Below, piece by piece: positions 16,971 through 62,353 of a stretch of DNA of 64,000 bases (the stretch's first letter is position 1; every line of letters begins with the position of its first letter). A program made the translations under genes and the position numbers. The notes under the pieces were generated by a model. That model was not told where the DNA came from and did not search any database. It saw only the letters and a program-made list of their open reading frames with translations. This DNA comes from Amphiscolops sp. MND2022 (lineage: Eukaryota). The stretch is taken from positions 48,734,001 to 48,798,000 of the forward strand of contig OZ076409.1 in NCBI GenBank assembly GCA_964187785.1. Reading direction: 5' to 3'.

Positions 16971-17690
16971 CATTACGATACACGTACCGGTAAGCTGCAT
17001 TTCAGTCAAGCAGCGTAATCTGTGTAATCCGTAAAATGGTCATTCAGCGTAAGTTAGTCAAGACGGTCTATGCTTCAACGGTGTAGCTGTGTCAACGCGC
17101 GTAATGGAAAATAGTGTAAGCTAGTCAAAACACGTAGTTAGTGAAAAGTGGAAGTTAGTCCAAAAATACTCTTTTTCGTAATTCAGTCAAAACTTTGACT
17201 AACTTCCGCTTTTTGCAAATTGCATATCGCTATACTTGCAATAAGTGGAAGTTAGTCAAAGTTTTGACAAACTTACACCATGTTTATATGCATTCAAAAC
17301 TCAGTGTTCATTTTAATTCCAATTCATACCACAGCATCGTAAACCAGTCAAAGTAAACAACGATTCAATAAATAATTAGTTATCATTACTGAGCTCCACC
17401 GTGCATAGTACGTATAAACTGCATTCAATGCAAGTTGCACACGTGAACACGTGTGTTTCATCCACGCATTTACGTGCAAATAAAATACCTTGTAGCTTCT
17501 AATTAGTACAATTGATTGATCTGTCAACGATCTGTTTCCTATTTTAAAACATAATTTCAAAGCAGCCCTCATTAATAGTTGCCTAACTATTTTTAATTTT
17601 GGTCCCTGTCGTGAGCACAGTCACCGGAATGATTGGATAACTTGTTATTTTGGTCTGGGTATTTTGAGCCAGGGTATTGGCAAGGATCTA

Positions 17691-17917
17691 TTTTGATCCC
17701 TGTCGTGAGCAACATCAAGAAAAAAATTGTAACAAATAGTCTATACGAAGTTGAAACTTTATCAAACCGAAAACAGTAGTTTATGGAATACCGATCTTGA
17801 ATTATTGAACTAAAAACGAAGTTTGGACCATGTGCCTTATTCTCCCTCAGATAAATACTGTTTCTTATCCAACAACATCCCCCCATCCAAGTCTTCCCAA
17901 ACAAGTGAAAGTAGGTC
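17691..17917 (+). repeat. ~226-bp direct repeat, copy 1 (copy 2 at 50517-50741; partial copy at 47147-47197)
   Basis: ORF-track peptides 17593-17919 and 50486-50767 are near-identical; DNA compared by eye. Confidence 0.93.
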
Positions 17918-18928
17918 ACTATTCCAATATGAGATCCAAATGTGCCTCACCCCCCTTAGATAAAAACCGTTTCTTAATTGCTTGTTGTTAATTAATTGCT
18001 TAGTCAAATAAATGAATGGTTTTTTAAAGAAGTAAAGAAGTAAATTCAATTGGTCAAATGGAAAAGAGAATGAGAGAATTGATTTCAAAAATTGAATTAC
18101 TTTGTATCATGGTTAAGCATTAAAAGCATTGAATAACGCCACGTGACATATACGTCACGTTACATATACGGTACATGTATGTTTTAAAAGTTTATGAATG
18201 TGTGCAAAGCAGCGGCAAAATGGGGATGTTGGCGCGGTCGATAAGTCCGTGGGATGTGACTGTTGGTACCACAGGATCGATCCCAGCCATTATCACACTG
18301 GCTAGGTGAATCGATGCACACAACTCTGACAAAGATTTCCTCCATATTTGGCGTCTCATTTCGCAGAATATTCCACATTGAAGGTATCAACACCGCTGAA
18401 ACATCCTTTTTGATGAGAGGAACTCCAAGGTGTGTCCTTGTTCTGTGCCGCAACTTGCGCAAGTTGAACTTTGTGTCCCCCGACTTTTTGTGACCAGACC
18501 TTGGTAAGTAATGATTGCAATGATATTCATACTGAAAATACGTTATCTTTACGGCGTTTGGTTCTAAGTGAACAATTGCAAATTTTGCAATGATTTTTCA
18601 ATAATAAAATTTTGTTTCGAAGACTGAATTCAACTGCAATTTGAAATAATCATTAAGCATAATCATTCAATAAGTATTGCAGTTATATTTCACTGATTTA
18701 TTTATTACCAAGGTTTGGTGGTGACTCAAAGCAAACCACTGAGACAAATTCCCTCCATATTGATTTATCAAAAGACACATGTCTTGTTCCGCTTTCCAAT
18801 CCCACATTGAAGGTATCATCACCGCTGGAACATCCTTGTTGATGAAAGGAATTGTTCAATCCTGGTTCATATCAAATGAAAGTATTCTTCTTTCTTCTTT
18901 CGAAACTCTTGAATGTAAATTCCCTCCA

Positions 18929-19551
18929 TGATCTTTTCTGTTAATCCCCCCCACAGTAAGGGCGGAAATTTTAATTCCCCACCACTATCCAGGGGTGTGA
19001 AATATTGTACTGGTTATTCTATTGTAGCTCACAATAACTTATTTTTATTGCGTGCGCACAAAAACAAATAATTGTTTCAATAACTTGAATTATTTAAAGC
19101 AAACATAAATTATTGATCAACATCATCAACAATTATTGCTTATCAACGACAGAATTTGCGCTTCCACGTTAACTGGGGTCGTTTTCTTGGATAATCGGTA
19201 AAAACGGCACGAACGACACTAAATCGCATTGTATCGATCTGCGCTGTATGCGCGGCGATTCAGACATTAAATTATTGAGCCAATGAAAACAATTATTGTT
19301 GCAATCAAACAAATAATTGCTATTGAATTTTTGCCTAAAAAAATAATTTTATTGTATTTATTGAAAATTATTTATCAATAAATTACTTATTTTACACCCC
19401 TGCCACTATCAGCGATGAGTTTCAGTTGCAGTTAGAGCTATTAAATACTGCAATTTGATTGGTTGTTACTATTAATTCAGTGATAATTTCACTTGACCGC
19501 TTAACTGGGGGGGAAATTAAATTGGTGGGGGGGAATTAACAGAAAAGATCC
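18929..19551. mobile_element. Merlin-like MITE containing a nested hAT MITE
   Basis: TIR (G)GATCTTTTCTGTTAAT.CCCCC; 8-bp TSD TCCCTCCA at 18921-18928 and 19552-19559. Confidence 0.75.
18990..19402. mobile_element. hAT-type MITE
   Basis: TIR CAGGGGTGT; perfect 8-bp TSD CCACTATC at 18982-18989 and 19403-19410. Confidence 0.88.
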
Positions 19552-19824
19552 TCCCTCCATATTAATTCAGCAAAGAGCACGTCTTGTTCCGCTTTCCAAT
19601 GGTACAAAAATCCCACATTGAAGGTATCAACACCGCTGTAACATCCTTGTTGATGAGAGGAACTCTTGAATGTAAACTTCCTTTAAAAGTTTAGACTGGT
19701 CCGATTAACTGTTTAAACTGATTGATTACGCAAAATTAGTGTGAAGAATGTTTGTATCTCAAATTGAGATTCTCAATTCCAAACTCTCACTTTGAAAAAA
19801 ATTAAATTGATGGTTTCTAGTTTG

Positions 19825-20295
19825 GGACCATGTGATCTATGCCCCCCCCAAAAACTGCGGCGGGGGGAAAATAATAAAGTAGGTTCAAATACTAGTTTTA
19901 AGCGAATTAATTATGTCGACATAACATTTTTAAATAGTCAAATACCATTATGTCGACATCGTTGCGTTGAAATTTTAGTCCGATAAAATAATTGATGTCG
20001 ACATAATCATATCTTTTACATTGATTGACAGTTAAAATCAATCATTATTCTTTGAAATGTGCTTCCAAACGGACATGCTTCTTTATTTACAAAACTACGA
20101 ACTTTGCATTCAGCATTTAAAAAATTTGGGTCATTTGCCACGAAGTTTGAATTCACGCGTTTAGTAATATTTGTAAGCATATCAACTTGTTTTATTCATT
20201 CAATAATTAATATACTTGTGAAAAAGCCGTTTTCGTTTGGGGGGGGAATTCCTAACAAGGTGTATATGGGGGGGGGGGAATAGATCACATGGTCC
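19825..20295. mobile_element. Merlin-like MITE inserted in a long palindrome
   Basis: TIR GGACCATGTGATCTAT; perfect 8-bp TSD CTAGTTTG at 19817-19824 and 20296-20303. Confidence 0.85.
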
Positions 20296-22458
20296 CTAGT
20301 TTGTATTCAACTTGAATACAAACTAGAAACCATCAATTTAATTTTTTTCAAAGTGAGAGTTTGGAATTGAGATACAAACATTCTTTTTTTGAAATCATCT
20401 GATCTTTTTTTGATACCTGTCGTGAGTTTCAACAAAAACTGTTCCGAAAAATTATTTTTTCGATTAACTGTACTCTTTTGTACGAAAGAAAGGAAATTAA
20501 AGACAAGATTAAAAAGCCATCAGTTTAACTAAAACTGATGGCTTTTTAATCTTGTCTTTAATTTCCTTTCTTTCGTAAAAGTAACCCGTTTTTTTGAAAA
20601 GTTTTTTTGAAAAGTAACCCGCTTTTGAGTTTTGTAAAAGAACGATTTTCAAAAATCAGGGAAGTTTCCAAAGGTTAGTTCCAAACTGAACGAACTGTTT
20701 CATTCTTTTGTTTACCATTCATCAATCAAATTTTAAGTTGTTACAGCTACACATGGTTTCAAAAAGGATGCGAATAAGTCCTACCTTATAAGGTAACGAA
20801 AGTTTCACTCATCATGAGTGATGATCAGCTCTCATTTCCTTATAAGGTACGCGCTGTTCCATTTCTATGAAAAAGCTACCTTATTACCTTATTTGGTCAA
20901 TACGGTGATTCATCGTTGACGAACAAGCGTGCGCGCACTACCTTATTTGGTCAGTGAGCGCCTGCTTTAAAGTACTTCAAGTTTGATCGCGGTAAAATTC
21001 CAATTAAATTGGCGGTAATCAAATCTTCTCGGAGAGACCAATTTCCCGTATGAGTAGGCATTGTATTTATTTGGAAATTACAGTAGTAGCAGAAGCATAC
21101 AATAAAATATGGATACCGTTTGGTTGATGGCTAGGCAATACGGAAACAAATACGGAAGAAGCGTTGAATATGTGGAAGTAAAAACAGTATTTACTTCTGA
21201 CTCAGAAATAAATACTGTTTTTATTTCCACATATTCAACGCTTCTTCCGTATTCTGAGAAGTACTGAGATTAGTGATTGTTAATCATGTCGCTTCTCAGA
21301 AACATGTCAATTCAGCTAAGTATTGAATAATTTCTATCAAAATAGATATATACTTATGTACGGCGAAATATGGAGAAACATGACATTTATATACAAATGA
21401 ATCCCAAGCCTACTCATGATTGTTCACTATGGATGAATCAAATGAAGATTTTTGGAAATTGGCAGTCAGAATTTGTAACAGACAGCAATATCATTGACTT
21501 GTTGGTAAATATGAACGCCAATGCGAATTCTTAAATTGATGATTGACATTTCTCACCACTGTTACAATACACTTCTGACAGCAGAAAATGGTTCGCAATA
21601 CTAGCCCCGAGAAGAAAAATTTAGCTCCGAAATTTATCATTACTAGAAAAGCAAAACGGTTGACCGTTGAATCCTCTCCCTTTACAGAAGTTTCAACAGT
21701 CTTAGTAGGTAAGATATTGATAGTTTCGTTTCCTTTCCGTAGTATTCAGCTATCTAAAAATTTATTCACTTCACTAAAAGCTTTAAATATAGTATATCTT
21801 CAAACAAACTCCGGTTTCACCCCCTTTGGAAAAACGAATAATTCTTCTATATTGAATCTGAATCAGTTACTAAGGAACTGGATATAAGTTGAGTCGGACA
21901 CTTTTCAAGCGCCCGGCGCCGAATTTTGGTCGCGTTAACCTAAATAAAAAACCGTATGTCCCTCATATTATCGTCACGGTTGTGATTACGCTCACGGCAG
22001 GGACCAAAGTTCAGAAATTTGATTGAGAGTAAAAACATTTATGGTAAACAAAGTACTCAGTAAACAAACAAAATCCTGAACTTTGGTCCCTGTCGTGAGC
22101 GCAATCTTATTAGACAATTCATTAACTTGTCCATAACAACAAACACTGTCTGGCCGACAATAGTTGATAAATTGTTCAATGCGTAAATTTAATGATGAAT
22201 TGTTTAATGATAATTTGTTTAAACTGAGTTGCAACTAATTTTGGTCCCTGGTGTAAGCGCCTGATGTAATAAAACGTTCCTATGACTAAAACGACTCCGA
22301 TGACTTCTGATCAAGGAAAACGCTAATTTGAAAATTCCATTTTGGAATTTTTGTATTTTTGATACGTTTATAAAAAATGCAATAATCATGATCGTAATCA
22401 TTTGAGGATCACACCATTTGAATTTCATATGAAAAGTTACATGACAAATGAATTGAAA

Positions 22459-24203
22459 TTAGGAGCAATGTTCCTTTACGTGCATTCTATAATTTTCCAT
22501 TGTCTTGAAATTCACATTGGATACGAGTGTCGCGTGAACATAAATGTTGCTGTTGAAGTTTAGAGTTGATGTTTTGTCAACTTTGAATTTCAGGGACGTA
22601 ATGACAGCTGTTCCATCCGCAACTTTGTCCCATTCGTTGCCCAATATGTGGTCCCATGCTGATGTTGAAAAAGGGCCGTCGTCTTCTTTTATGGAGAATG
22701 TCACTGGGCCATTTGTGACACCGAACGCGTGAATCGTCACATCAGTGCAAGGGGCAAAATCTTGCTTGATGTCTTTGACTCTGCTGCCTCCACTGAGGGA
22801 ATTCATCAGCAAGTTCTTCAGGTTAGAATATGCCCAATACACTAACGCATGGTCGTCGTATAACGGCGCGCCAGGTGCGTTTTCAACTGCTCCCAGTCTT
22901 TTTTTCCGGAGATAACTTACAGGGACTGTTGCGTTAAAGGAAGGATCGTCCTGTTTTTCGACTTCTACGAGAAGTTTCGTCTTTAAATAGTAAATAGAAT
23001 TAATCTTCCAATCGCAGCCCAAAATTTCAACAATGTCTCCCTTGATGACGACTCCGGTGCTGATGGGGACACAAACTAGTTCTTTTCGTTCAAGTGGGGT
23101 ACTTTTGAAACTCTGGCAAGGTCCACCAATGGTGATGGCCTGGGATGGTATTGCATCAGGATTACCGAATAATTTATCGTAGTCACTATTCCAAAGTTGA
23201 AAAAATATTAGAAAAATGATTGAAAAGTACTACAACTAACCCATTGAACCTATTTTGGTTGGTGATATGCGAATGATAGATATTTTTGCCAAAATTGAGA
23301 ACTCAATTCGCTTCGGAAAAACTGAGGATAAAGCACTTCGGAAACTTTTCCTCGTAGTATTGTCAAAAACATTTATGTATTCTACAAAAAATTCAAATCA
23401 ACTGTACGTGCTTTTTCTCGGGAGGCTGCCAACAACTTGCAACGTTAAACTTGCAATCATTCAACCCTCATAGTCTAGCTAAAAAATAGTTGTACCTCTG
23501 TTAAAAAAATATTGAAGTAGTATTTTTGGTAAGCCTGCTTTACATCAATTTTAGTCTTCTTTTTAGGCATCTTGGCGGGGATCGTGGCCTCTATTCGGCT
23601 GGTCACCAACACGGTCTTTTTGTCGCATCTTGAAGTAACGTGTTCTTCGTCAGATTCATCCGAGGACTCAGAGTCCTCGGGTTCTTCGAATTTCACTTTT
23701 TTGAAAACGGATGCTGCCTTTTGTGACAATTCGCATCGAAGCTGGTAGTATTTGATGGGGACCAAATTCACATTTTCCAGCTGTTCGTCGAAAAAAACGT
23801 TTTCTTCTATTGGTATCACAACTGGCGATATCAACATTTCTTTACGGAAGGGATCGTTTTTCATTACGAAACCTTCTTCGATGTCCCCTATGTGTCGGAC
23901 GCCGTCTTTAGCATGGGCCAGTGTGTAATGAACTTTATCGTTTCTAACACGTTTTTCTTTCATGTAGCCCAGAACATCAAGGCTCAGTGTCAGTTCAACG
24001 CTACGGCTGTAGCTTGGAATTGGCGTTTCGTTCTTTCGGATGGGCCATTTCTCTGGAAAGTCATGAAATTTTGGGGGTGTTCTAACGACTCCTGCTGCAT
24101 GTTTTGAGTTGTAATCCAACCATTTGACTTTCGCCTGGAAACAAAAACTTTTTAAAATGTAACTCATTGAACAAAACAGTAGTGATATTTCTGAAAGCAA
24201 CAA
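22459..24203 (-). CDS. Orphan, probably spliced cargo gene(s) of unknown function
   Basis: ORFs 23475-24203 and 22459-23022 (the latter open upstream to ~23190) are GC-richer than their flanks and protein-like; no family recognised. Confidence 0.45.
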
Positions 24204-25027
24204 ATGGCAAGTCTGAAAATCGAATATCTCAAAAACAGCAGCGATTTCTGAAAAATTATGAGGATGAAAGTTTCTTAGATATTTATATGTTTATTTGAAG
24301 AATATAGGATGAAAATTTAATAGCTCATGAGTTCGGTGAAATTCGGTGACGTAGGCTGATCGCCAAAGTCCACATTCTTCCTCGAAACATTGCAAGAGTT
24401 CTCCGATTTTGAAATTTTTCGAGAATGTCTACATTGTCTGTTTCGCACTCGGTTCAAGACTCGGTACTAGTAGTGGGTTTAAGAGGACTAAATTCAGTGT
24501 CTTTGTAGTGAAATGAGACTAATATTTTGTTGCTTTGGGCAAGCTAAGTTAGCAAAAAGACTTCAACTTGAACTGACTTCAACAAAAAATAGAATAACTT
24601 CAACTTAAACTTGTCACAGCCACAAAACCAAATTGGGTTAAATTGTTCCAGAATAATATGCCGGCCCGCGGGCGTTAATTTGAACCAATGTGGTCAAAAC
24701 TTAGATTTTCGGATAATCAGTTGAATTGCACAATGGAAAAATTAGTCTATTTAATGATGCTATTCATTACTATCCAATTCATAGTAATGAATGATGCCTC
24801 CTATGATGGGGATGACCATCATTACAAGGCCCACTTCATCCAATATTCAATCTTGGTTGAAACCTAAACCACAAAACCAGATTGGGTTAAATTGTTCCAG
24901 AGTATTTTGCCGGCCCGGAGGCGTTAATTTGAACTTGACTTTCGAATAATGATAATTATTAAGTGATTAGATAATGATGCCCCGTCCTGGCTGACTTCAA
25001 GTCACGCTGATAAGTCACGCTTTACGT

Positions 25028-25092
25028 TACGCTGATTGACCATCTTACGCTGCATGACTGAAATCCATTCTACCGGGAAGTGTCTCGTAATT
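25028..25092 (-). repeat. Internal inverted copy of the left transposon end
   Basis: Reverse complement of 25045-25092 matches 16971-17018 at 39/48 positions, plus a further ATGGTCA(A/T)TCAGCGTAA block. The terminal C is changed to A. Confidence 0.8.
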
Positions 25093-25254
25093 ACATCGTA
25101 AAATCGAAAAGGGAATAAGTTTTTGAATTCATCATTTGAAATCAATTCCTCGTCAAGTTCAGACCTCAATTTTATTCAAACTTCTCAACTATATTGTTGC
25201 AACAACCAGTTTACTAATCTCTTGAATTCGAGAATCAAACTGAAATTTTCCAAA

Positions 25255-28751
<3,497 letters not shown>

Positions 28752-30529
28752 AGCTCTGGCCCTTTTAAATTCTGGCCTTTTTATAAAATGGCGCGTTTGT
28801 ACATTTTCTAGAGAATGGCGCTTGTCAATTGTCACTACTACTACTGGCGATATCCAAATACTTGGCGATTATTAATACTACTACTACTGGCGATATTTGA
28901 ATTTTGGCGATTATCAATCAGCTAGCATCAAAGTTTGGAAACGTCTAAGGAATAACGTCTAAAGGTGTTCCGGGAATAACGTCCAGAGTAATAACGTCTG
29001 AAGTTCGATGTTTCAAGATACTCAATAAGCATGACATTGCTTTAGATGTTATTCCCGTTTAGCTTTCAGACGTAATTGCGTAGACGTTCCAGCTTTTCCA
29101 TCAAAATCATGAGGATTCAAATGAAAACGTCCAAGGAATAACGTCTAAATTTGTTCCGTAAATAACGTCTCAAGTGATAACGTCTAAAATTCCATGTTTT
29201 AGAGATATTGAATAAGCATGAAATAGCTTTAGACATTTTTCCGTTTTGCATTAAGACGTTTTTCCTTGGACGTTAAAGCTTCTCCGTCAAAAGCATGAAA
29301 AGGTATCTGAGTAGATTTATTCTGATTGAAAGTGAAGATATAGGAATCATATGAATGGGGGATTAACTGAAATCACTGAATTCTTTTTATTGAATGAAAG
29401 TGGAGAAATGGTAATCACATGAAATGGGAACTAAAATGAAATGGGAGTCACGTGGAAACAATGAATTCTTTTCATTGAATGAAAGTGAAAACTTGGTATG
29501 ACATCAAATGGGAACTGAAAATCATATGAGATAGGAATCAATATGGGAATGGAATCGGAATCAATGAAAACACAATGAATGGTTAACAAACAAAACGAAA
29601 ATCAAATGTATTCTCATCACATGAGTCCAGATAAAACTATTGGGCATCATGGACGTAAATATGAACAATACGCAAACTTGATTTTATTGTAAATTCTAGT
29701 TATCATCTGTGGATCAAACTCAATTCCAGAATTTTTCAAGGTTCCAATGATCTCTTCTCGTGACATACCTTTCTGTACATGATAAAATAACTCTTGGGCC
29801 CGCTTCTCCTTCTCACATGGGTCCCGCTTTCTGTGACTCTTCAGAGATTTAATGAACTGTTCCCGTCGTGTGGGATAATTTGATGACTTCGAATAACTCT
29901 TCGGGTTCTCACCTCCGTCATCTCCGTCAAGTTCCTCATCGTCATCACTGGAGCTCCCTGGATGGAACTCAGAGCCACTGGAGTCTGACTGATTTGTTCG
30001 AGGTCGTTTACTGTATTGTAATTAATTTATAACGCACAGAGAAAAAACTCAAAACTGACGTGAAAAGTCAGAAGAAACAGTTTCTTATTTTGACGTTAAA
30101 AATTCGTAGACATGATTTCAATTTCCAACAAATTTGGCAAACTTAAACAAGAACGTACTCTGATTCGGCTGAAATTGCATTTGCCATGGTCTTAGTTTTA
30201 ATCAAACTCAGTCAACCTCATATTCAAACGGTCGTTTGTATTCATCTAGATTAGCGAAAATATGATCAAAAATTGTCTCATTTTCCAAAAATGTTGGAAA
30301 AATTTTCAACGTGAAGTGTATGGAATAAATTAATTACACAGTAGCTCTCTTTTTACGCAGTGGGACAATTTCATTGGATTCACAGGAGTGGGTAGAAGAC
30401 TTCAGTTCCCGTGGGGTTGAACATATTATTCTTCCTGCATGGCGGTGTTTCCGTTGGGGGTTTCCTGCATCTGAAGACGCAAGAGTTTTATCTTTCGATC
30501 CAGGTGTTCCAAGTTGTAATACATGTTTT

Positions 30530-30702
30530 CCATGCTTGGATCCCGCACTTCCAGACTTCGATGCTGGAGTTCCAACTGGTAATCCAGGACTTGCATGCTT
30601 GGATCCCGCACTTCCAGACTTCGATGCTGGAGTTCCAACTGGTAATCCACGACTTGCATGCTTGGATCCCGCACTTCCAGACTTCGATGCTGGAGTTCCA
30701 AC
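30530..30702. repeat. 60-bp coding tandem repeat, ~3 copies (GLPVGTPASKSGSAGSKHAS)
   Basis: Visible in the DNA and in ORF 30334-31185. Confidence 0.92.
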
Positions 30703-35730: not shown

Positions 35731-36760
35731 AACTTGAAGTGTAATCATTAGTGAAGATGATCTTAGTACAGTAGCGTGATTAAAAAAAATGCCCGGCCTG
35801 CCTCTACACTGAGCGTTATCATAATTGATCGATTAAGCTATGATCAACTTTTAAAAATGCATGTTTGCTCAATTTCAACTGATTATATATTTTCAACACT
35901 TTCAAGTGATATCATATTTCAACATATTTTCAACTAATAACAACTAATTTTCAAATAGTTTTTTCTCCACCGAAGACAGTATTTTTCTTCCTTACATGAT
36001 GATGATACGTATGATACTAGTGGAGTCTCATAAATTTAGAAATGTTTTCAGGACAACCAAAGAAGTTTTTTTTGAATTTTTGAATTACGTTTCGAGTCAC
36101 TTGGTTTTTTCTCTGGGGTTAACGCTTTATCGCATAACGAGACAACCCGGTAAAATAGGTTTCAGGCACGCAGCTGTATGATCTCGGACATTTCAAAAAG
36201 TCTGTCGGAAGTTTGCAATTTGTTTTTTCTTCTTCTACCGTGACGGTCACTTCTGGTGGCTATCATAACTTTTGAAATTGTTTTCAAAATCATTAAGCCA
36301 GTATCATCGTTTTTGTGATTTGTTTCTGGTTTCTTGCTTAAACAGGTGTTGTATTTCAGATCGAAATGATACAAAAACCAATCATCACTTATGCTGGCAT
36401 CAATTACGTGAAACTCATATTCCTGAACGTCTTGTTCCCGAATGTGTTCCTGCTGGAAAGCAATGACTGTCTTCTTCCCAATGATCGCAGGAAGGCTACA
36501 GATTTCCTCAAGAAGCATTTAAAAGGTTTATTTTCTTTCCTTTTTTAATCAAAAACATACTATGTTTTTTATCAAAAACATATGTTTTTATCAAAAACAT
36601 ACATACTACGTTTTGGACAATTACGTTTACGATCTCTAGTTAGTAACTAGAGATCGTAAACGTAATTGTCCAAAACGTGGTTGTGAGATGTAAGGAACGC
36701 ACTTAAGCATAGCATTGTAGTTGATCGTTCGTGGCACGTTTTGATTCATGATTGTTGCAG

Positions 36761-39708
36761 GACTGAACGTAAACTTCTCTGATGTATACAAGCCCCATGG
36801 ATTCAAAGAAAGGTGTCCTTTGTTGCGCGAAGACGTATTCGATTTATTGATAATATCTGCACCTCCATCATTAATTCCCTGGACGACTAAAAGAGTTGGC
36901 TATATACGACAACTTTTCCCTTCGTTGCCCATTCCAGGCTCAACCTCTTTTTTAACAATTGACACTATTTTTTCACAACAGTCATTGGAAACAGGCGTTT
37001 CGCTGCAGAATTTTTGGAGCTCTTCTTTGAAGACTATATCAGAATCAGAAATTGCATTGGGTCATTTTATTGAAACTCTCAAGCAGTTTTTCACAAGTCA
37101 AACTTTGAAAATCAAGAAAAAAAACACCTTAGTGCATAAACTTCTTCATCTATTTCTGCCAAACTTGTTTTGCCTTCAAAGGGAAGACATTCAAATGGAG
37201 ATTCAATGCCTACTTACTCTCAGTAATCCTCAGGATCTTTTAGTCAAAATACGTCGACTTATACAATGCCCTTTCATCAAATCCACCATTCTCCCTTCAA
37301 GACGTGAACTTCAAGCAATCACAAATAAATTGAACGAAGATTTCAGATCAATACTTACTCCCAGAAGAACCCCCACTGGGTTCCGTGTTAATCTTGTTAC
37401 ATTTGTCAGATTCGTTGCCTGCAATTTGTATAACAAGACCAGCTTAGTCGGCTTGAGAGTCGACATTTATGGTGATGCAATGTCTCGGGGGAAAAAAGAC
37501 GTCGTACGAATGGCCTTCCGAATTTTGCAAAGCGGCATCGAAACTGAGCAATCCTCAACCCATGTCTTCACGTTTGCTGTGTTTGAGGTGAGTCGTTCAA
37601 GTTTTAATCTGAAAATTCGGAACTTGATTTCTTTTGTGAGCTACATCAAAATGTTTATTGAGAATTTTGGTCCCTGTTGTGAGCTACACTTAATAGTTTA
37701 GTGGTAACGCAAATCTAAATTTGGTCCCTGTCGTGAGTTACACTTAAATGATTACTAAGTAGTTGGAAAACCAATTTGGTCCGTCTTGAGCAGCACTCAA
37801 ATGTTTTGTTGATATAATTCTAAATTTTTCTCTGTTGTGAGAAACTGGAAGTTGAAATATGAAATTTTGGAATGTTTCCCAGGGTAAAGATGTGCGAATC
37901 AACCTGGAATACAATCTCGCCATGTTAGAAGTGCTTGGACGCCCTGGATGGCTATACAACGAAACAAAGGCCTTGCATGATGAAGGTGCTATACTGAGTT
38001 GTTCGGGTGATTCACCATTCCAACTGCGTCTTTTAAAAAGTGTTAGCAGTGATGTCTCTTGTCTGTCAAAGATGTGTCTTTATGTCAGTGATCCTGCAGA
38101 TATTTCGAATCCACCACTGAAACAGAGAAAAAAGACACCGCTGAATATAAGAGAGAAATGGAAGGAAGGGGGGTGATTCTTCCGTCAACTGTCGATTATG
38201 CTACTGGCCGAAGAACAGAACTGATCATTGACATCAACGAATGCATCCCAAAAGACTCTCTCATTTTTCTCAAATCCACTTTCAGTACATGCCCTGATTT
38301 GCTGCATATGGTTGTCCGTTCAGTCGAAAGTGACTTGAAGTTGCATGTGGACTCGATGTTGCTGTTGAAAGACCATGCAGAAATATGTAGACTCGAATGT
38401 AACATAACGGAACGAAATGTGAAACCGCCGAGATTCAGGTTTGAGATCGTTGAAAAACTCTGCAAGGCTGTATCTCTCAGTTTCAGAGACGCCGAAGTTA
38501 TAATTTCCGACTGCAACAGAATCAGCGACTATGGCCGATCAGACTGCCCAATTTTTGAAGGTGTATGTTCATTCGAAACACCTCATGTCTACAAAGCTGA
38601 TCAAACAACCTCTACAACGTCTTATAACGTATTGATATCATTGGTTGATGGGTTGGAGACATCTTTCACAAAAGGAGTGGGTATTTCTGTTCGGAAACTG
38701 GCTGACCTCCAATTCCAATCTCTTTACCAGTTACTTGATTTGCTTCGACAGAGAGAATTCAAAGATATTCCAAAGTGTAAAGATCTCTATGAGATTTATT
38801 ACCAGTCAACTTTATGTCTTTTCGGTGATCGTGCGTTGACGCCATACAAATTGAAACTGGATATTTTACTCAGACTTTTTGAGAAGGGTGAGCTTCTGTC
38901 TCCATTTTATTACATGACAGAAGGAACTGAAAAAAGCCACCACATGGCAGCCAAAGACTACAATACGAAGACAATGCGTGATGGTGGCAATGATGCTTGC
39001 AACATGTCATCCAGTTATCTCGATATTCAGTTTTCCTTCTACCGTGCAATTGATTTATGTTCTTCAAAGTCTTCGACACTTGAATCTTACCGGAAGTTGT
39101 ATGGAAAAACCGACGTGACAAAGTCGTATCTTGAAATTTGCTGTGAACCCATTCCAGAACCTGAACTTGACTATCTTAGAACTGAAGACATGTTTAGAGG
39201 TATGCACTTTGTCATTCTTGGAACATATGGTCACCTGAAAGAAACTCAAGCGAGTCTTGAGAAGAAGATCACTGAAAATGGAGGAAATGTTGTTTCCAAT
39301 GTAGACATCATCAACAGAAGCAAGCTGAATTTTTTGAGCCATCACTATTGCATTTTACCAAATCGAAATTGTATCGACGCATTCATTAAAGGTCAACAAG
39401 GTAAAGAAAAAGCTGCAACGAAGGCGCTTTCCAATACGATACTCGGTAACTGGATTTACTTGAACGCTGAATTTGTAATCGCCTGTGTACAGAAGAAGTC
39501 CTTGATTGATCCCAAAGGTTATGTTTTTGAAGTAGATGAGTCTGTGAGAGCCAAATTCAAAACGATGAAGTACATATCTATGGCCCCACAATTACAACGT
39601 CAATCAAACCCCCTACGACATGGTTCATTAACTTACCTCACAGCAATGCGGAAGTACAAGAACGCACTAAAAAAGGCCACCTTGAAGAGAAAACTAGACG
39701 ACGTTTAA
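36761..39708 (+). CDS. RAG1/Transib-like DDE transposase with a C-terminal BRCT domain (spliced; 5' exons uncertain)
   Basis: Candidate triad IYGDAM / CSGDSP / TEGTEKSH. DLLH and TPYKLK motifs parallel RAG1 DALH and TNYFHK..SEGNESGN. BRCT: FRGMHFVILG..ITENGGNV..LNAEFVIACV. Phase-0 intron 37588-37882; one frameshift in a G-run near 38170. Confidence 0.68.
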
Positions 39709-40537
39709 TATCTAAAAACTTACTTATTTTATTACTAATTCAGTAGACAAGGTCCCTTTGACCGCTTCATTATCAATTCAGTGCATATCTAAAAACTTAC
39801 TTATTTTATCAGACAAGGTCCCTTTGACCGCTTCATTGTCAATTCAGTGCTATCTGATAGGTGAACCAAAGAAAACGGAATGTACAAAAATTTTTCGAGC
39901 TCTCAAAGTTCCTAATATTTGTCAACAATCGTTTGAAAGCTCCTGCCAATCATTCAAATTTGGTACATTTCTTAGAAGCGAAAATGCTTTCACACATTGA
40001 AAGTGAGAACGAAATGACTGGTATAGACGTCTAGACTATTTTTGATGGTTCAAACCATCTTTGGTTGAAAATGTCATTACGTAATTTGATCTTAAATCTA
40101 AATGAATGACAGAAAAAATTGAACGATTATCAGTGCCTTGCTTACAAATAACTTATGTTATAATTTAAACTTATGATAGGTCTATGATGATAGATTAAAC
40201 CAAATATTCGCAGTTCAACTTATACTTCCATGGTATATCTTTTCGCTCTGACGTTTTCTCTGAAAAGTTCATCAGTCGAATTTTTGATCCCCGTCGTGAG
40301 CGCAATATTTAACTGCATCGAGTTTACATTCCCTCTGTTACCTTATTTACTATTGAATGATCTATGACAGTTGTCTCAGGAATGATCTAAGAGGACGTGT
40401 GACTTCCTGGATTAGTGTGATTTGTTGTGAGTTGTTGAATGTATATATTTGACAATCATTTTATAGTTAATTTCATACAATATTGAATGGTGTATAACTT
40501 ATGAGCGACTTCCTGGAATTTTTTCAGTTGATATCAA

Positions 40538-43500
40538 ATGGCAACACTGCCGACCACGCCATCAACGTCTCGTCGAAAGACACCAGAGAAAGTCCCATGT
40601 GGCCAAGGTTCGATAAACGATTTTTTTTTGTGATCAAGCTGTAACGTAATCAAGCTGTAACTTTTTTCACGGAAAAGTTTAATCTGACATATGGCATTCC
40701 TTTTAGGCACTTGTGACGTTGTGGACAAGCTGTCCAACATTCTACGCCACCGCAAAGTCTGTCCCCGAATGCCACGAGAGCAGTTCAAGCTCATGGAGAG
40801 AACGTGCCAGCTCTGCGGCCAGATCATTTCCGCCAAAAAACTGCTGAAGAAGCACTACAATACAAAGTATTGTAAGGAGCAGCAAAAGCGGAAAGCAGAA
40901 GGCCTGCCTACCCGAATGTACCAGTACGGTTAGTCATTACAATGTATGTAAAAAATTGATCGACTTGTAACATTTTGAAAAGTCCAGTTTATCATGCCCG
41001 AAACGATAAGGGAAACTCAATGATTTTGAAAAAAAAACTAGGTCTCAAACAAAAAGGGTGTTTTCATTCATGTAACTTCTATGTTACAGCAGCTGCAAAA
41101 GGCTTGACGCGGAGGCCTAACTTATGCTACGGCAGAGGTTGTGGCAAGTCATATGTTTACCCTTATGACTTGCGCGTGCACCTTTTGAAGAATCCTCAAT
41201 GCCAGGAAGGAGCGAATGTGAGTGCCTGTCCTATTTTTTTCCTCTTTAAGAACACATATTGAATGATTTGATTGACCAATTGATTCTCGAAACGCCGTGT
41301 TTTACACGGTGAAAATGTGACTGGAACTCCGAATGAGTCATTTTATCGTGGCAACTGTTTAGGCTGCAGTATCTTTGGGCTCCGATTCGTCTAGCAACAC
41401 TGACGAGCGATTCAGGCCAGAAGATTTCAACCACATTCCTTCTGATGTGTTTGGATCTGATGGATTTTTCAAGTTCGCGATGGAAGTGCCCCTCGACTAC
41501 AAGTTTCCTGTAGCTCAATGGGAAGGCAACGTTGACGACCATGTCGTCAAATTCAATTCCCTGATGAGACACAGTGTGCCTCTGTTGTGGCGTGGAGGTG
41601 TCAACCATTGCCATGGTTTGAAGCTGCCTCAAGTGGAAGAAATCGCTTTCACTGAAGTTGTCCAAGAGCTTCTAGTCCCCCAGAAGCTACAAGCAAGTGC
41701 AGCAACCATCAATGTCAAGTCGGCAAAAATTGGAGAAGTAAGTCTTTGGTTGAATTACTTTCAATTTGAAGCTTGTATTTTTCGTAAAATATCTGGAACA
41801 ACTGCAATTTGATCCCTGTCGTGAGCTCATTTTCAAACTTGGACAAGTCTTTGGTAGAATTACTTTCAATTTGAAGCTTGTATTTTTCGTAAAATATCTG
41901 GAACAACTGCAATTTGATCCCTGTCGTGAGCTCATTTTCCAACTTGGACAAGTCTTTGGTAGAATTACTTTCAATTTGAAGCTTGTATTTTTCGTAAAAA
42001 AATATCTGGAACAACTGCAATTTGATCCCTGTCGTGAGCTCATTTTCCAACTTGGACAAGTTGAACTTGTCGAACAACTGCATTTGAACTATTCTAGCGA
42101 GTAGAAAGTTGTCCGTCTTATTCCCGTCTTAGTCAATTTATGATCATTTCATTTCAGAGTCGTGACCTCTGTCTCGACGATTTCAAGCAGGAGCTCATCA
42201 ACGCCGACAGAAGCAGCGTTTACTATCCTTTAAACGCTATAGACATCGCCATGCAGCAAAAGGTAAACATCATTGAATGAGCTCCTTTGATTGAAAACGC
42301 AAATCCACTGAAAAATGACTTTTCCTTTTCTGTTTTTCTTCAACCCCCTGTTTACTAGTAGTTGCGTACAAATTGGACTTTGAGGATGCACATTGTTTTG
42401 AAACAACTTCAACTTATATTGATTTTTTTTGTCTTTTCAGTCCATCTACAGCGTGCCAACGATGATAAAAAAGTCGTCAGTCACACCCTTGTGGACGAGC
42501 TGGTCAGTAAGTCAGCAGAACCGTTCTCAGTAGCGACTTCATACTACTTGCTGATCTCCAACGATGGTTGTCAAACAACTTGGCACACGGACTTCAGTTC
42601 AACATCTGTCTTTTATACAGTCTTGACTGGGTCCAAGACCTTCTTTCTGGTTGCGCCAACTGAAAACAACATGGAGTTGTTCAATGCCTGGTCCAAACAA
42701 GAACGCGACGACATGTAAGTTGAATTTTTTCACCAAGGAATTTCAGCTTTTGCGTTCATCTATTTTTGTATTTTTTTTGCATCATTTTGCATCACGGGCC
42801 ATCATTTCCGTACGTGTTTTCAATGTATTTGCGAAATTTTCAACTTTCAATGCACTATATTGTTTTTGCCAACAGTTTTCGTTTTAGGCCAACATTTTTT
42901 GGATGCCACAAAAGACTGGAGGGGGGTTGCCTCAGGGTTACTCTTAATCCGGGCGACGTTTTCGCCATGCCGTCTCAGTACATCCATACAGTCCTCACAA
43001 GTGGAGACTCTGTGGCAGTAGGGACGAATTTCCTTTCAGAAGGTCATTTGAACCAGATCATGAAGGCGATCATTGAAGAAGACTCCGTCAGGGAGCATGA
43101 GAAGTTTCCGGGCATGTTGGAAATGCTAGCTATTTTGATGCTCAAAGCATCAGAGAGATGCATGATAACTCCGGACTTCCTTCGACTTCACAGGGTCATT
43201 GAGAATCGATATCAAGAAAGTGAAGCTGTTGCTGTGAGTTGTATTTTTTAGTTCACAATCGTTTCGAATCAAACTAAAAGATCGAATTAAGTATTTGTAT
43301 AATGAAGCCGTGTTGTGACTCACAACAGGGACCAAAACTAAAATTGGTAATCATCATGAATAATGTTGATGATGACGTTGTGGCTCACGACAGGGACCAA
43401 AATTAAAGGTGGTAATGATTAATTCGTGAGCCACAACGTTATCATCGACATTATTTGTTGATGATCAACAAAGTTGATCAAATAGCTTAGTGAGTTATCA

Positions 43501-44147
43501 TGAGTTTTGTTTCAGATTTGCCCCGAATTCAGCAAGGAGAGACTCGTTTACAATATTTGCTCGCGCAAAGACTTCGTAAACGATGTTTGTGTCACTGCTT
43601 TCACGGAAACGGCCTCAAAAAAGGCATATCTTCTTTGCCCCAAGCCTTGCTTCAGAAGGAGGAACTGGTATACGAACGAGGACGGCGTGAAGGTCCCGAA
43701 GGAAGCAATTTCTGAGGAGCGCCTCACTTTCTTGTGCCGAAGACCTGATGTTGACGAGCCGAATCGTGATGTTTTAATCAGCTATGAGGAAGCCATCACG
43801 TATGTTCACCCGCGACCGTCACAAACTGTCAGAGGTTTGCACAAAATGCCGAAAAGAAAAACCCTCGTTCAAGACCGTGGTAAGTTTGCTTATTTTAGTT
43901 ACATCCTGGTTGTTTCGTCTTAATATACATAGTGGTAATGTAAGTGATAATATTCAACTCAAAACTGGTCACCTGGTTGAACATCCGTAAGGCTTACATT
44001 TGATTTTCGTATTTCCTAAAAAGACTTCAAAATGAAATTAATGGAGTGGTAATCGAATTCAATGTTTTTGTTTCAGAATTCAGACCATCTACTGATCGTT
44101 ACGTTGCTTCGATCATGAGCCACCATGTCCCTGCATACAGCTTGTAG
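40538..44147 (+). CDS. Nine-exon zinc-finger + JmjC (KDM2/PHF8-like) histone demethylase
   Basis: Exons 40538-40607, 40707-40928, 41090-41217, 41363-41737, 42158-42262, 42441-42714, 42888-43233, 43516-43879 and 44077-44147. JmjC TTWHTDFSSTSVFY..GSKTF..PGD..MPSQYIHTVLT..DSVAVGTNFL keeps HxD..H and K. N-terminal C2H2/C2HC fingers. One probable frameshift near 42480. Confidence 0.85.
41738..42061 (+). repeat. Intronic 105-108-bp tandem repeat, 3 copies, each carrying the dispersed motif
   Basis: GATCCCTGTCGTGAGC at 41811, 41916 and 42024. Confidence 0.95.
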
Positions 44148-44315
44148 TTGCGTACAGACTGAGTTGTGCTTAAGAAGTTCTTGATCAATGTTAACTTAAC
44201 ATGTTGAACTTTCTTGTCTCCGAGTTATTTGTTGTGCTCAGTAAATTGTACACTGTGGCTCGGTATAAACTTGGAGCTTGAAAAACTGCTCTGGATTTTT
44301 CGAATGACCGTCAAC

Positions 44316-44757: not shown

Positions 44758-47713
44758 CCGTCAACAACCGGTATTTTTTGTTCATAGCAAATTCAGCAAA
44801 ACATTCAGCAAATTATTACGGCAAAGTCCAATTACCTCATAGTCTAGTTAAAATTTTTATTTCAACTAATAACTTCATGGTAAAAAAGTGTTGTTGACCA
44901 TTATTAAATTATTAGGAACTATTCATTCAATAAGTTAATGTGTACAATTTACCTTCGATTTATAGTGCATTCAAAGTTTGTACAGCTTTGATCGTTTGTA
45001 AGTTTGTAACGTTCTGAATTGTATCAACTGTGTTTTGGACAATTACTGTCGGAAATGTCGAGTAGTTGTTCCCAAAAAAAGAGGGACATCTACCGTCGGA
45101 AATATCGGGTGGTTGTTTCCATAAAAATTTATCAAATACCGTCAAAATCAATCATTGATGGCCGCCGGAAATCATCGGGTCATCGGAAGGGAGTTTCCAA
45201 TTAACTTCGCCTTTGTGCTCCCTTGCATCGTATGTTTTCTCTTCCAGTACAAGCCGAGTATGAATAACAGAAGCAAAAGCCTCTTTGTCAAAGTTAAACT
45301 AATGTAAACTAGAAGAAAATTTAAGAATAGTTTCCTTCTGACAATTTTACAAATTTTCAATGGATTCCGAAAAAATCAAGCCTGAAAAAGCTCGGGGGAG
45401 GTTTTCCTAATCACAGTACTAGAGCTCTCAACCAATGAAAAGAACATGTGGGCCTCAATTAGCCAATGATATTTATTCGTTCGTTCCGCCGGCGGCTGCT
45501 GTTTTTCAAAAGTTGATAAAAACACTTGAAGTTGACTCAAGTTTGTTATGTTTGCTATAGACCAAGACTCAAGTTATTTCAATTATTCTTGACTCAGCAG
45601 CTCGGAGAAGCAACATAAATACAGGTACCTTTTGATCCCCGTCGTGAGCAAATATAAAACAGAGTTGCTAAACCATATTTTAAGTTAAGTACCAGCTCTG
45701 AGAATCTGTCCCTGTTGTCAACTACAGTATCCTTCTTTTCTTACGATGTGTTTTCAGAAAGAAAACAACTTTCATTGAATATTGTATTTTGAATATAAAA
45801 ATAGCACCAGTTTTATAATGGAATTTATGAACATTATAAAATCACAAAAAAAATTGAAAATAAAAAATTTATCTCTTGTAGAGCAAATAAATAATGAGTT
45901 TTGAAACTTTAAAGTTTCAAAAATAGTGGAAAAGTCGTTGAAATCATTTCAACGAAACTTTGAGTCCCTCGAAGTTCAGGTTCAGACATTATGAAGTTCA
46001 GGTACCCCAGGTTCAGTCATTATTTTAGCCTGAGCAGGCATCCTTGTTTCCTGCAGAGTGGGCACTTCACCCAAAGGGCACGATCAGTGCTTTCCCTGTG
46101 AATCACAGTGATCAAAATTTTCGAACGATATCTAGAATGAGTTTGTTTTGTAACCACGTGTGTACCAAAAATTTCAGGAATACAAAAATGTAAAGGACAC
46201 GCCTCAGAAAATTGATCAGTGAAAATTATCAGAAAGGAAAAGTGAAAACAGCTTCAATAACAATTTTTCAAAGAAAAGTTTTGTGAAACTTACCTCTCAA
46301 GCACTTTGATCCATGCTTGACGGCACTGATTGCATATCGCGTGTTTATCATGGAGAATCCAAATACGCGAAAAGATCTTCTCTCCACAGACAGCGCAAAG
46401 CATTTCCAGTTGGTTAATGTGTTTCAGGTGGTCAATAAGTACAATGATTTTTAAAAAGATATATCAGTCTGGTCACACGGTTGTTTGGAGATCGAATGGC
46501 CAACAATCGGCCCGGGACATATAGAACACATCGTACGAAAGATTTGAACTTTATTTTGTCAGTATCTTGTTTCTATGTACGAACAACTTGCTTTGTTTCA
46601 TGACTTGACAACTTGCAAGTCCTTTTAATCCTTTCACTAAGTAACCACCTAGTTAATTTATAACCTCTGTACCTGTAACAAATAACCGTCTCCACTTATT
46701 ATTTGGTTTAGTAAACCAACGCGGTACTGCGGTAGTGCCACTTTCATTCATTTCAAAATAAGATGATAGTCAAGATGATTCTTTCACATCAGTTATTATG
46801 TCGATATAATTGTATTTGTACTTTGCGACCCTGTAGTACCACCTACTAGTGTTAGTCAGAATTTTAAGTGTTTTTTCATGAAGTAAAATACTTTGTTCAC
46901 ATGAAAAGTTTCAATGGTTTCAAAAAATGAAATAATCAATACTTTACAGAATTGAATGACGTACATATGTATGTTTACAAAGTTTAGGAATTAACAAATT
47001 TCATTTATTTATTTTTACTAAAAAATAAATAACGTACATATGTCATTTTGATCCCTGTCGTGAGCAACATCAGTTACTGCTCACCACTACTAAAAAAACC
47101 ACTAAAAAAACCACTACTAAAAAAATTAATAACGTACATATGTGGTTTTGATCCCTGTCGTGAGCAACATCAAGTTGTAACAAATAGTCTATACGAATCT
47201 AAAACTCTGTTTGAGTCTAAAACTCTCTATCAATTTGAAAATCTGAAATGTCTATTACCAAATCTCCAAGTACTTAAACGATTATTTAACTACCACTGCA
47301 GTAAATTTAGAATTGAGGCGTGTTTAATAAGGACAACTGCCAGTGAAGGTGCCACAGTGAAGGTTTGTCGAAAACTGCTGAGAAGTTCTTACACGATTAA
47401 TTAATTACCACTGCAGAAAAGGGTAGATTTGAGACATTTTAATTATGACTATTCAAATTTTGTCGATAACCGCAGCAAAGTCGTTACACGATTAACTAAT
47501 TACAATTACGAATTGAGGCTTTCTAATAATGACTTCTGAATTTCTGTCGAAAAAAGTCGATTCATTCAAACCTTTTGCATCATACTGTCAACTTGCTTTC
47601 AATTCTATTAATATTGTCAACCTTCTTCTTTCGCAATCATCAACTTCTGTTAATCTTAATTTCATAATCAGTCAATCAGATACTTCTTTCTCTCGCAATC
47701 ATCAATATCTATC

Positions 47714-48875: not shown

Positions 48876-49528
48876 CAGGGCTACCGAAAAATTAATGTAA
48901 TAAATGTTTCTGTAATAAATAAATGTAATAAATGTTAATAATAAATAATTTATTTCTAGTATATTTCCATCCAGATAATTTATTTCTGTCATTCGAAAAA
49001 TACCATAATTTATTTCGGAATTTTCCATTATTTTAGAAATAAAATGAAGCTACAAAGCAAATAAAGGCAGACGCTACCACCAAGGCAGCTTGCCGTATGT
49101 AGGCTATTGTAAATTTTATTTCATTTTTATTCCATCAATTTCTAACATATGCGAACGGCTCTTTAGCCGTGCAAAACTGCCCCAGGGATACTTGAGACAT
49201 CAAAATATAGCATCAAAACATAGAGATATCAAAACAAAAATGAGCAAGCTTCAAGGTGCATTGTGGTCAAGCTATGATAGCTTGACCCCAATGCACCTTG
49301 AAGCTTGCTTATTTTTGTTTATTAACAAATCTTTGTGGAATGTAAATGTTATTAATGAAGTTATAAATATGGCTGACAATTGAAATTATTTCATATAATT
49401 TAAAATTATGGCCATAATTTATTTTTTTGCTGAGAAAATATAGTTATTTATGGGCAATAAATCTAAAATAAATCTATAAATATAATAAAAATAATGAAAA
49501 AAACTAAAATAAATTTTCGGTAGCCCTG
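48876..49528 (+). mobile_element. Non-autonomous hAT element with a transposase dimerisation-domain remnant
   Basis: TIR CAGGGCTACCGAAAA; 8-bp TSD AATGTAAC; peptide PSISNICERLFSRAK..LTPMHLEACLFLFIN. Confidence 0.9.
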
Positions 49529-49554
49529 AATGTAACATTGGTTCTAAAATCTGA

Positions 49555-50400
49555 ATGTGGACGAAACAGTTTGGCTTCAGTATCTCAGTATCGGATGCGA
49601 ATTTTACCTCCGGTGTAAAATTCGCATCCGATACTGAGATACTGAAGCCAAACTGTTTCGTCCAATCAGATTTTAGAACGAACCAACGAGTCGTCATCTG
49701 GAAGGACAAATTTGATGATCAACTTGCAAAGCGAACAAAAGCTCGGTCGTCTCGTTACGAACTTCTAGACCTATTACACAGTCTGAAATCCAACCTGTCA
49801 AACTTGAAAGCGAATGGTCATTGTGTGAACAACTTCTTGACTCAAGGACGACCTTCGGTGGACGAAATTGAAGATCTTTCCTACCCATTTGAAGAATGGA
49901 TGGAGGAAATTGACCCCTTGGTTTCGGCTCAGTTTAATGCCCAAAACTTCGCAACCCTCAGTGAGGAGGATTTGAAGCAAGAACAAAACAAATGCCTGGA
50001 ACTTCAAGAAGGGGTTCAAGCTCAGAGAATCTCAATTGGCAAGTTACAGAAGAATATGTTGATGATTGAGGCCTTGTATTAAACCATTCAAAACTCACAG
50101 ATTCAGAACAGCACACAAGATAACGAATCAGTGGCTAGTTTGAGCGACCGCGTGATCGGAATCATGAACAGATACAACGCCATTTCTTCCAACGTGGAGG
50201 AAAGAGCGCAACAACTGTATTTCGACATAGAGGAGTCCTTACAGGTATTGAGATTGTGATTGTTATGTATCCGAAGAAACTGAAAGAACAGCTGAAGAAT
50301 CTATCGCAAGTTAGAACAAATCTGGAGGACACCGGTGCCGAAATTGACAAGATCAAAGCCAACGCTGAGCAAATGTTGAAGAGTAATCCTCACAATCGAA
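49555..50400 (+). CDS. Orphan coiled-coil-like ORF(s); 5' part scrambled by a palindrome
   Basis: ORFs 49555-50082 and 50256-50465 are rich in L/E/K/Q. Confidence 0.35.
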
Positions 50401-50516
50401 TTTATTATTTCAGAACAATATATTGTCAATTCATGATATTATTCATTTATTCAATAAAAAATTAATTGATATTTATTGATCTTATTCAATAAAAAATTAA
50501 TAACGTACATATGTGG

Positions 50517-50741
50517 TTTTGATCCCTGTCGTGAGCAACATCAAGAAAAGTTGTAACAAATAGTCTATACGAAGTTGAAACTTTATCAAACCGAAAACAG
50601 TAGTTTCTGGAATACCGATCTTGAATTATTGAACTAAAAACGAAGTTTGGACCATGTGCCTTATTCTCCCTCAGATAAATACTGTTTCTTATCCAACAAC
50701 ACATCCCCATCCAAGTCTTCCCAAACAAATGAAAGTAGGTC
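50517..50741 (+). repeat. ~226-bp direct repeat, copy 2
   Basis: Matches 17691-17917. Confidence 0.93.
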
Positions 50742-51172
50742 TCATAATGAAGGGGCGATTGCTTCATTGAGCTTGGTAATTTTGGTCCCTGTCGTGAGCA
50801 CTTCCTGTAGTCAGATTTACTGTTTATGCGATTTGATACTGTGTATGCGAATCAAGCACTGTAGTTATGAGTCGGCGTGTGTAGCTCACCAGTAACAACC
50901 CGTAATTACCCGAATTATGTGTAAATATGAGATGCACAGTGTAGTTAGTCAAATTGCTTAAACTAGTCATATGGTGTAAACTAGTCAAATACTGTACTGT
51001 CCAATGGTGAAACTAGTCAACGTACGAAGCTGTGTCAACTAGTGTAACGTCCTATCAATGCGCGTAATGTGTGACAAGTGTAAAACTTCCAAAAAAAATA
51101 TTCGCGCTCTGATTGGACAAAAATCGAACTAGCAGGATCCTGCTAGTTCATACCGGCATGTGTATCGTAATG

Positions 51173-62319: not shown

Positions 62320-62353
62320 CTCTTCTCTTGTCGATTGAACTCAGTTCCCAAAG

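Follow-up and report, generated by a model that had tools for sequence, protein, structure and literature searches.

Three transposon-encoded anti-silencing mechanisms, all from plants, were recognized in a 2019 review (PMC6719617). VANC proteins bind motifs of 8–9 bp, which lie in tandem repeats of the non-coding DNA of VANDAL transposons and vary from one VANDAL family to another (PMC5735166), and Spm TnpA binds family-specific motifs at the element termini (10.64898/2026.08.24.746577). The CMCT transposon clade has been described together with TET/JBP enzymes on fungal transposons and SET enzymes on oomycete elements (PMC12730594), and KDM4-like JmjC-only enzymes occur in giant-virus insertions of Amoebidium (PMC11244446). 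Here we analysed a stretch of 64,000 nucleotides from Amphiscolops sp. MND2022 (contig OZ076409.1, positions 48,734,001–48,798,000; hereafter the window, with positions counted from its first letter), which contains a 34.2-kb DNA transposon of a family that we call A. A 19-bp motif is scattered through the non-coding DNA of this element and, as comparison with sister families suggests, may be the binding site of a protein encoded by the element itself, most likely a zinc finger-JmjC (ZnF-JmjC) protein predicted to be a histone demethylase.

The whole window was scanned with the pattern TTTGRTCCCTGTCGTGAGC, allowing up to three mismatches, which gave 23 matches (11 exact; 18 on the forward and five on the reverse strand) against 0.03 expected, and none of 100 shuffled sequences reached 23. 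The same number and strands had been given in a first-pass annotation, which proposed the motif as a self anti-silencing address; the copies themselves stand, with forward-strand starts two to three bases further left than it placed them. In an unbiased approximate-repeat scan the motif ranked first, with 23 copies in 13 clusters, and the runner-up had four. All copies lie within 17598–50799 and none in a nested insert at 28748–35661, which served as motif-free internal control; the scan thus agrees with the earlier statement that there are none outside 16971–51172 or inside this insert. Their assignment to introns and gaps also holds, as none overlaps an exon model (chance about 0.002, counted over 13 clusters) with models covering 38% of the element and built from open reading frames (ORFs), splice signals and cross-family conservation, not from RNA. 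Eleven copies are in five GT-AG introns. A role as RNA or splice signal is unlikely because the motif is used on both strands. The copies are arranged as follows:

17598–17710, forward strand: two motif copies (17598, 17692), left subterminal, 630–720 bp from the end
20409–22258: intergenic motif copies at 20409 (forward), 21990 (reverse), 22082 (forward) and 22240 (forward); 21990 and 22082 form an inverted pair
26028–26046, reverse strand: motif copy in modelled intron 25508–26295 of a tyrosine-recombinase-like (YR-like)-SET gene
27318–27460: palindromic array of three motif copies (forward, reverse, forward) in intron 27264–27560 of the YR-like-SET gene
37666–37738, forward strand: two motif copies 54 bp apart in transposase intron 37588–37882
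40283–40301, forward strand: one motif copy, 255 bp before the start of the ZnF-JmjC gene model
41808–42039, forward strand: 105-bp tandem array with three motif copies in JmjC intron 41738–42157
43318–43401, reverse strand: pair of motif copies spaced by 65 bp, within JmjC intron 43234–43515
45631–47165, forward strand: intergenic motif copies at 45631, 47047 and 47147
50518–50799, forward strand: two motif copies (50518, 50781), right subterminal, on the same strand as the left-end copies and not inverted

Repeat analysis recovered both the local tandem duplications (54, 65, 100 and 105 bp) and the palindromes that had been reported: tandem units measure 105/108 bp, copies recur at distances of 54, 65 and 100 bp, and the palindromes (I2, I6, I9 and I16) are present. 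The 23 copies have 17 distinct flank contexts, so local duplication accounts for only part of them. A 225-bp direct repeat (96%; 17691–17917 and 50517–50741) near both ends starts exactly at a motif copy, and a deletion junction in another locus (L001) falls just past a motif. Near-perfect hairpins without motif are found at 20478, 21149, 36605, 48147, 49232 and 49558, with arms of 28–52 bp and spacers of 1–7 nt; so many motif-free hairpins indicate a general palindrome-forming process in the family A element.

Across the 1.07-Gb genome the motif has 2051 exact copies and its reversed control none. The first 30 exact matches, all on contig C1, were taken as confinement sample, and 30 of 30 align to the family A element, 29 over at least 444 bases and one over 92. 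This places the motif inside copies of the family, as had been anticipated, and speaks against its being equally common throughout the genome. The end of an unrelated short interspersed element (SINE) or miniature inverted-repeat transposable element (MITE), named beforehand as a competing origin, was rejected, since flanks are not shared among copies (17 contexts for 23 copies) and are at background level. One candidate for a further family, P0001, proved to be an old A-like copy carrying the A motif.

Fourteen regions around diverged or full-length matches were examined, of which three define a family B and four a family C. Both have the same gene set as A at 48–66% identity, with synonymous divergence (dS) saturated in all but one comparison and terminal inverted repeats (TIRs) that are almost identical. 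The A motif was searched in the B and C regions and is absent, and each family has its own variant of one scaffold, TTT-n5-CTG-n3-TGA-n-C, which comprises ten of the 19 positions: TTTGRTCCCTGTCGTGAGC in A, TTTACGAACTGT(C/G)(A/T)TGAGC-like in B and TTTGYTTACTGKCATGATC in C. The divergence between families that had been predicted was therefore found, and of the label 'private' the confinement to the element family stands; the A motif itself is one state of a scaffold common to three families. Family C holds 23–38 copies of TTTGYTTACTGKCATGATC and family B 13 copies of its site, which has 117 genome matches against one for the control. Tandem units carrying the motif measure 105 bp in A, 42–43 bp in B and 55–63 bp in C. 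The own variant is present in all three introns compared across the families, i.e., in the transposase intron (two sites in A, five in B, two in C), in the YR-SET counterpart of A intron 27264–27560, where B and C each hold their own variants, and in the first JmjC-domain intron (three in A, two in B, five in C); only two of 13 intron pairs between families give any alignment, and a short one. In addition, family C has a second motif, TGACATGGTCACTCAGACC, arranged in tandem arrays of 30–34 bp next to the genes for transposase and ZnF-JmjC (L134–L135, C11:52602147-52613642 and other C copies) that is absent from A and B, and family B (L123–L124, L130–L131) has at least four internal copies of its own TIR-like start in non-coding DNA.

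When sites were chosen by the scaffold alone and each flank context was represented once, the most frequent base at the nine free positions had a mean frequency of 0.78–0.91 within a family, as compared to 0.46–0.55 in the flanks, and the 19-bp edge is the limit of conservation across unrelated flanks. Matrices made with one family left out recover 19 sites in A, 7–8 in B and 15 in C at a score of at least 12 (controls at most 1). A comparison of A copies gave 61 differences in 1265 motif positions and 490 in 6036 flank positions (pooled p = 3e-5; for single copies p = 0.0002, 0.005, 0.2 and 0.58, only two of the four being significant by themselves, and all four comparisons share the window as reference). 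The pattern is what a site under family-specific constraint would look like.

These data bear on two explanations that do without an element-encoded reader. If the motif had been left behind by duplication, template switching or gene conversion and homogenised within each family, one could account for the many copies in tandem or palindromic duplications, for the perfect hairpins without motif that are common in the element and for the 225-bp repeat that starts at a motif. We consider this very unlikely, given that conservation ends at the 19-bp edge despite unrelated flanks, that the scaffold outlives the saturation of neutral sites in three families, that the motif diverges less than its flanks and that a fourth family, E, described below, lacks it. 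Similarly, the scaffold could be the site of a single host transcription factor or insulator, with the family differences hitchhiking; ten positions are common to all three families, and a length of 19 bp suits a host multi-finger protein. That the family-specific positions are constrained, that of 3659 genome matches to a scaffold pattern the first 100 are, judged by eye, A- or C-type variants with no host spectrum, and that family E has no sites makes a host factor highly improbable. A reader encoded by the element is, on this comparative evidence, quite likely. The genes of the element from which it could come are the following:

22459–24290, reverse strand: two unannotated ORFs, g22 and g23, conserved in B, C and E
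25251–28500, forward strand: modelled YR-like-SET gene (g26), in which a SET domain like that of SETD8/KMT5A is joined to a tyrosine-recombinase-like domain (a lead only)
36745–39708, forward strand: transposase gene (DDE, RAG1/Transib-like, with C-terminal BRCT)
40538–44150, forward strand: ZnF-JmjC gene modelled from ORFs and splice signals, the candidate motif reader

The ZnF-JmjC gene encodes three C2H2/C2HC-like fingers (40580–41217; Pfam scores below cut-off) and a JmjC domain of the KDM2/KDM7 type with KDM2A (E-value 3e-10), PHF8 (2e-9) and KDM7A as best matches in structural databases. The HxD...H iron triad as well as the T/F and K co-substrate residues are retained in A, B and C, and the WHTDF motif is present in 29 of the 30 sampled family A loci. 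The catalytic residues are thus intact in all three families, and a demethylase is predicted. No homologues of the family B finger-JmjC exon were found among longer proteins in a weak search.

A natural loss is provided by family E, represented by three loci with 68, 40 and 40 kb of sequence examined. Family E keeps a 631-aa open transposase exon, an 807-aa YR-SET frame, g22 and g23, whereas of ZnF-JmjC no more than a broken JmjC fragment, and no finger, is left in these 68, 40 and 40 kb. In the YR-SET tree E is sister to B (98/96), so the loss of ZnF-JmjC looks derived; the transposase tree leaves the four families unresolved. The transposase intron of E has no site, and leave-one-out matrices give 0–3 sites in E, at the level of the controls (0.7–2.3). 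As E keeps the other genes and is without the motif, the joint absence of fingers, JmjC and sites favours the ZnF-JmjC protein as reader over the SET protein, the transposase and the other genes. The first-pass annotation had offered ZnF-JmjC, SET protein and transposase as readers; E points to the first and leaves the other two less favoured, both being retained in motif-free elements. Around E and beside one B copy (L151–L154, L146–L150, L165–L166, L170), a degenerate TCATC-n6-CATC unit with a spacing of about 60 bp carpets kilobases of DNA, and is perhaps the address of another element type.

The same comparison weighs on the alternative that the transposase, the YR-like-SET protein or g22/g23 reads the site, which would then act as a transposition scaffold or serve a transposase-driven activator of the type of Spm TnpA or AtMu1. 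A transposase can act as a sequence-specific activator (10.64898/2026.08.24.746577), motif copies lie 370–720 bp from both ends, short derivatives of the element often retain one to three of them, and the YR-like fold, itself a lead only, could cover a long site. Against this, E has all these genes in open frames and zero sites, and the TIRs are common to the families while the motifs differ; end recognition in particular is disfavoured by end copies that are direct instead of inverted and by the two of five small TIR elements with a target-site duplication (TSD) that carry no motif. We judge such a reader unlikely, and the ZnF-JmjC protein is on balance the more probable one.

The C2H2 recognition code was used to pair finger residues with bases. 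At helix positions −1, 2, 3 and 6, finger 1 of A and B carries K, S, N, R and that of C carries V, S, N, R; motif bases 16–18 are GAG in A and B (sites end GAG-C) and GAT in C (GAT-C). The change from K to V at position −1 thus matches that from GAG to GAT, which we take as no more than a hint.

Besides the uneven comparison of single A copies, several observations weigh against reading of the motif by the ZnF-JmjC protein to counter silencing. The co-loss is a single event (n = 1), E being one lineage whose ends were not located and which is interleaved with other repeats. Finger 1 of family A has 11 residues from Cys to His, one short, one decayed A-like copy has Q at its position −1, and three fingers normally span 9–12 bp, not 19. 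More distant ZnF-JmjC genes with fingers and 43–50% identity form a group F (L183, C5:44961253-44962325; C2:33951454; C477:94664; C8:46856856), for which a scaffold site in the JmjC intron was predicted beforehand; none is present in the one full intron within the 1073 bases of F that were read, the best score of 7.6 being exonic. This intron contains instead a different tandem-and-inverted unit of 20–25 bp, unrelated to the scaffold, which is not dispersed, as an exact 16-mer of it has 11 genome matches, ten of them in that intron of four F copies. With the F test negative, the link between gene and motif is drawn from families A, B, C and E. CpG observed/expected ratios in the elements are 0.88–0.94, and transitions among copies hit CpG sites 1.6 times as often as other C sites, so that CpG decay is weak and gives little sign of DNA-methylation silencing to be countered. 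Finally, KDM2A removes H3K36me2, so that a related enzyme could mean repression.

This last point leads to a reading in which the ZnF-JmjC protein does bind the site but does so for self-restraint or for control limited to certain tissues, stripping cognate copies of an active mark such as H3K36me2. KDM2A is ahead of PHF8 (3e-10 versus 2e-9), the sites lie in gene-body introns and the element also carries a SETD8-like enzyme. The scores of KDM2A and of PHF8/KDM7, whose substrates are the repressive marks H3K9/K27me2, are however close and both stem from a single exon; moreover, E, which has no such system, is rare (three loci versus about 140 of A), which is weakly opposite to what a brake would give. 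Self-restraint is accordingly rather improbable in our assessment. Weak CpG decay makes a histone route likelier than a VANC-like one, and any anti-silencing is probably histone-based.

In the anti-silencing reading, the 19-bp motif would be a double-stranded DNA binding site for a transposon-encoded protein, most likely the three-finger JmjC protein, with each family having its own version of site and fingers. Within introns and gaps, local duplications of tandem or palindromic form would increase the number of sites, which selection would then preserve. Protein made from any expressed copy would bind all cognate copies in trans and erase a repressive histone methyl mark, so that transposase and cargo genes would stay transcribable and unrelated elements would not be woken. 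For this full reading, including an activating effect, we see the case as evenly balanced.

The element that carries the motif copies is delimited by the following features:

16971–51172, forward strand: family A DNA transposon, 34.2 kb including a 6.9-kb nested insert
16971–16992, forward strand: left TIR, starting CATTACGATACAC
28748–35661, reverse strand: nested insert, unrelated to the element, that sits in a (CTA)n tract and has SET, zinc-finger and integrase-like ORFs; motif-free
51151–51172, reverse strand: right TIR

The limits 16971 and 51172 proposed for the element are TIRs, and the TIR pattern has 627 matches genome-wide. Family A elements range from 27 to 34 kb with CA..TG ends, an uninterrupted copy of about 27.6 kb (C2:48866634-48894280) being flanked by a TG/TG TSD. 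Eight of nine end pairings have a 2-bp TSD, the exception being the window copy's own left end (GT at 16969–16970, GA at 51173–51174). Its right end fits the TSD at another left end, which lies 45 kb upstream (C1:48705424) inside a 185-bp satellite, and the window copy is thus probably a composite of two copies. Among the transposase matches listed, 140 of 150 have at least 86% identity (150 of 735 candidates scored), giving about 140 copies. Many young 27.7-kb A copies (L045, L047, L059) have a 110-bp TIR-bearing piece at one site, homologous to window position 27289, and a related TIR bounds numerous short elements (1991 matches to the pattern). The nested insert is a second mobile element with a SET domain; an 18-bp repeat of its own occurs eight times near its ends. 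Around the family A element lie Gypsy-like and BEL/Pao-like long terminal repeat retrotransposons and satellites of 185 and 84 bp (6540–16400, 55048–63617, 51140–52220, 53437–55047), all motif-free.

The transposase gene is frameshifted near 38170 in the window copy and has a 617-aa open frame in many others. It has 163 relatives among representatives, and GD, PDxxH, TPYKxK, ExxEKxNH and E are conserved. BRCT was found in 20 of 39 aligned rows, and none of these 39 transposases matched a Pfam transposase family. Language-model (ESM) features place it beside RAG1 clusters (0.94); a search of PDB sequences with the transposase profile gave nothing but a weak BRCT match, and a metagenome scan for relatives found none. 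The SET domain of g26 has RLLNY where RLINH is expected, in all families. The model of its YR-like region has a predicted local distance difference test (pLDDT) value of 53 and matches TopIB best (Z 5.4, root-mean-square deviation 4.2, 97 aligned), followed by XerH and TelK (Z about 4); ESM matches to tyrosine recombinases are leads, all under 0.9. A homologue search with the YR-like region returned only the family E protein itself, and hhalign of g26 against the integrase-like ORF of the nested insert had no significance. The YR-like domain may be a dead tyrosine recombinase.

In its layout the family A element resembles VANDAL/VANC in having family-specific motifs in intronic, intergenic and terminal non-coding DNA, often in tandem, and an accessory gene as candidate reader (PMC5735166). 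The features of the VANDAL/VANC type that are present are a high-copy non-coding motif that is rare elsewhere, differences between sister families, and tandem multiplication. VANDAL transposons are Mutator-type with a TSD of about 9 bp, and membership in this group was rejected because of the 2-bp TSD and RAG1-like transposase; only the layout is alike. In contrast to the plant system with its 8–9 bp motif and loss of DNA methylation, the site here has 19 bp and CpG decay is weak, and the candidate reader has its own histone-demethylase domain; binding has been shown for VANC (PMC5735166) and is predicted here. Spm/CACTA elements likewise combine CA..TG ends with family-specific motifs, there bound by an element-encoded activator, but TnpA is transposase-derived, uses host DNA glycosylases and binds terminal motifs, whereas sites here are element-wide (10.64898/2026.08.24.746577). 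No TnpA-like gene was identified in the family A element.

CA..TG termini and a 2-bp TSD (2–5 bp in CMCT) are shared with the CMCT clade (PMC12730594), and a DDE transposase that resembles RAG1 in its language-model features may be a further common trait. PDxxH, TPYKxK and a C-terminal BRCT instead of C(2)C and H(3-4)H set the present group apart; no C(2)C or H(3-4)H columns are conserved between the second D and E in the 34 long rows of alignment A1. The group is possibly an unnamed lineage near CMCT. Transib elements have 5-bp TSDs and CAC ends, and the 2-bp TSD and CAT ends found here place the element outside them. Like the elements of PMC12730594 and PMC11244446, it carries eraser or writer enzymes of the kind proposed to counter silencing; no family-specific DNA address is described for the enzymes there, and in the present element a dispersed motif accompanies a JmjC domain that is fused to fingers. 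In the literature searched, which extended to neither Repbase nor most subscription journals, we found no animal transposon that combines a ZnF-JmjC gene with dispersed motifs and no BRCT-bearing Transib-like group, nor do the available parts of PMC13269885 and PMC9406493 mention a ZnF-JmjC transposon with dispersed motifs. The animal analogue of VANDAL anti-silencing that had been suggested is therefore upheld in part, by confinement, co-divergence and co-absence in E, and weakened by the F test and by a motif that is not wholly private. What may be new is a self-contained, family-specific epigenetic editor in animal DNA transposons, with a zinc-finger reader fused to a KDM2/7-type demethylase and co-evolving finger by finger with a 19-bp address in its own introns, carried by a transposase group that is unclassified, RAG1-like and BRCT-bearing and has 2-bp TSDs; we put this forward tentatively, as something short of an even prospect.

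If true, the element would counter histone-based silencing with its own targeted eraser, a transposon-side mirror of the KRAB zinc-finger repressors of hosts. Three cognate pairs of reader and motif together with one natural loss would make this host–transposon arms race testable, down to a prediction of one residue and one base, finger 1 position −1 versus motif base 18. The compact and mutually distinct modules of DNA address and demethylase would then also be on offer for epigenome engineering.

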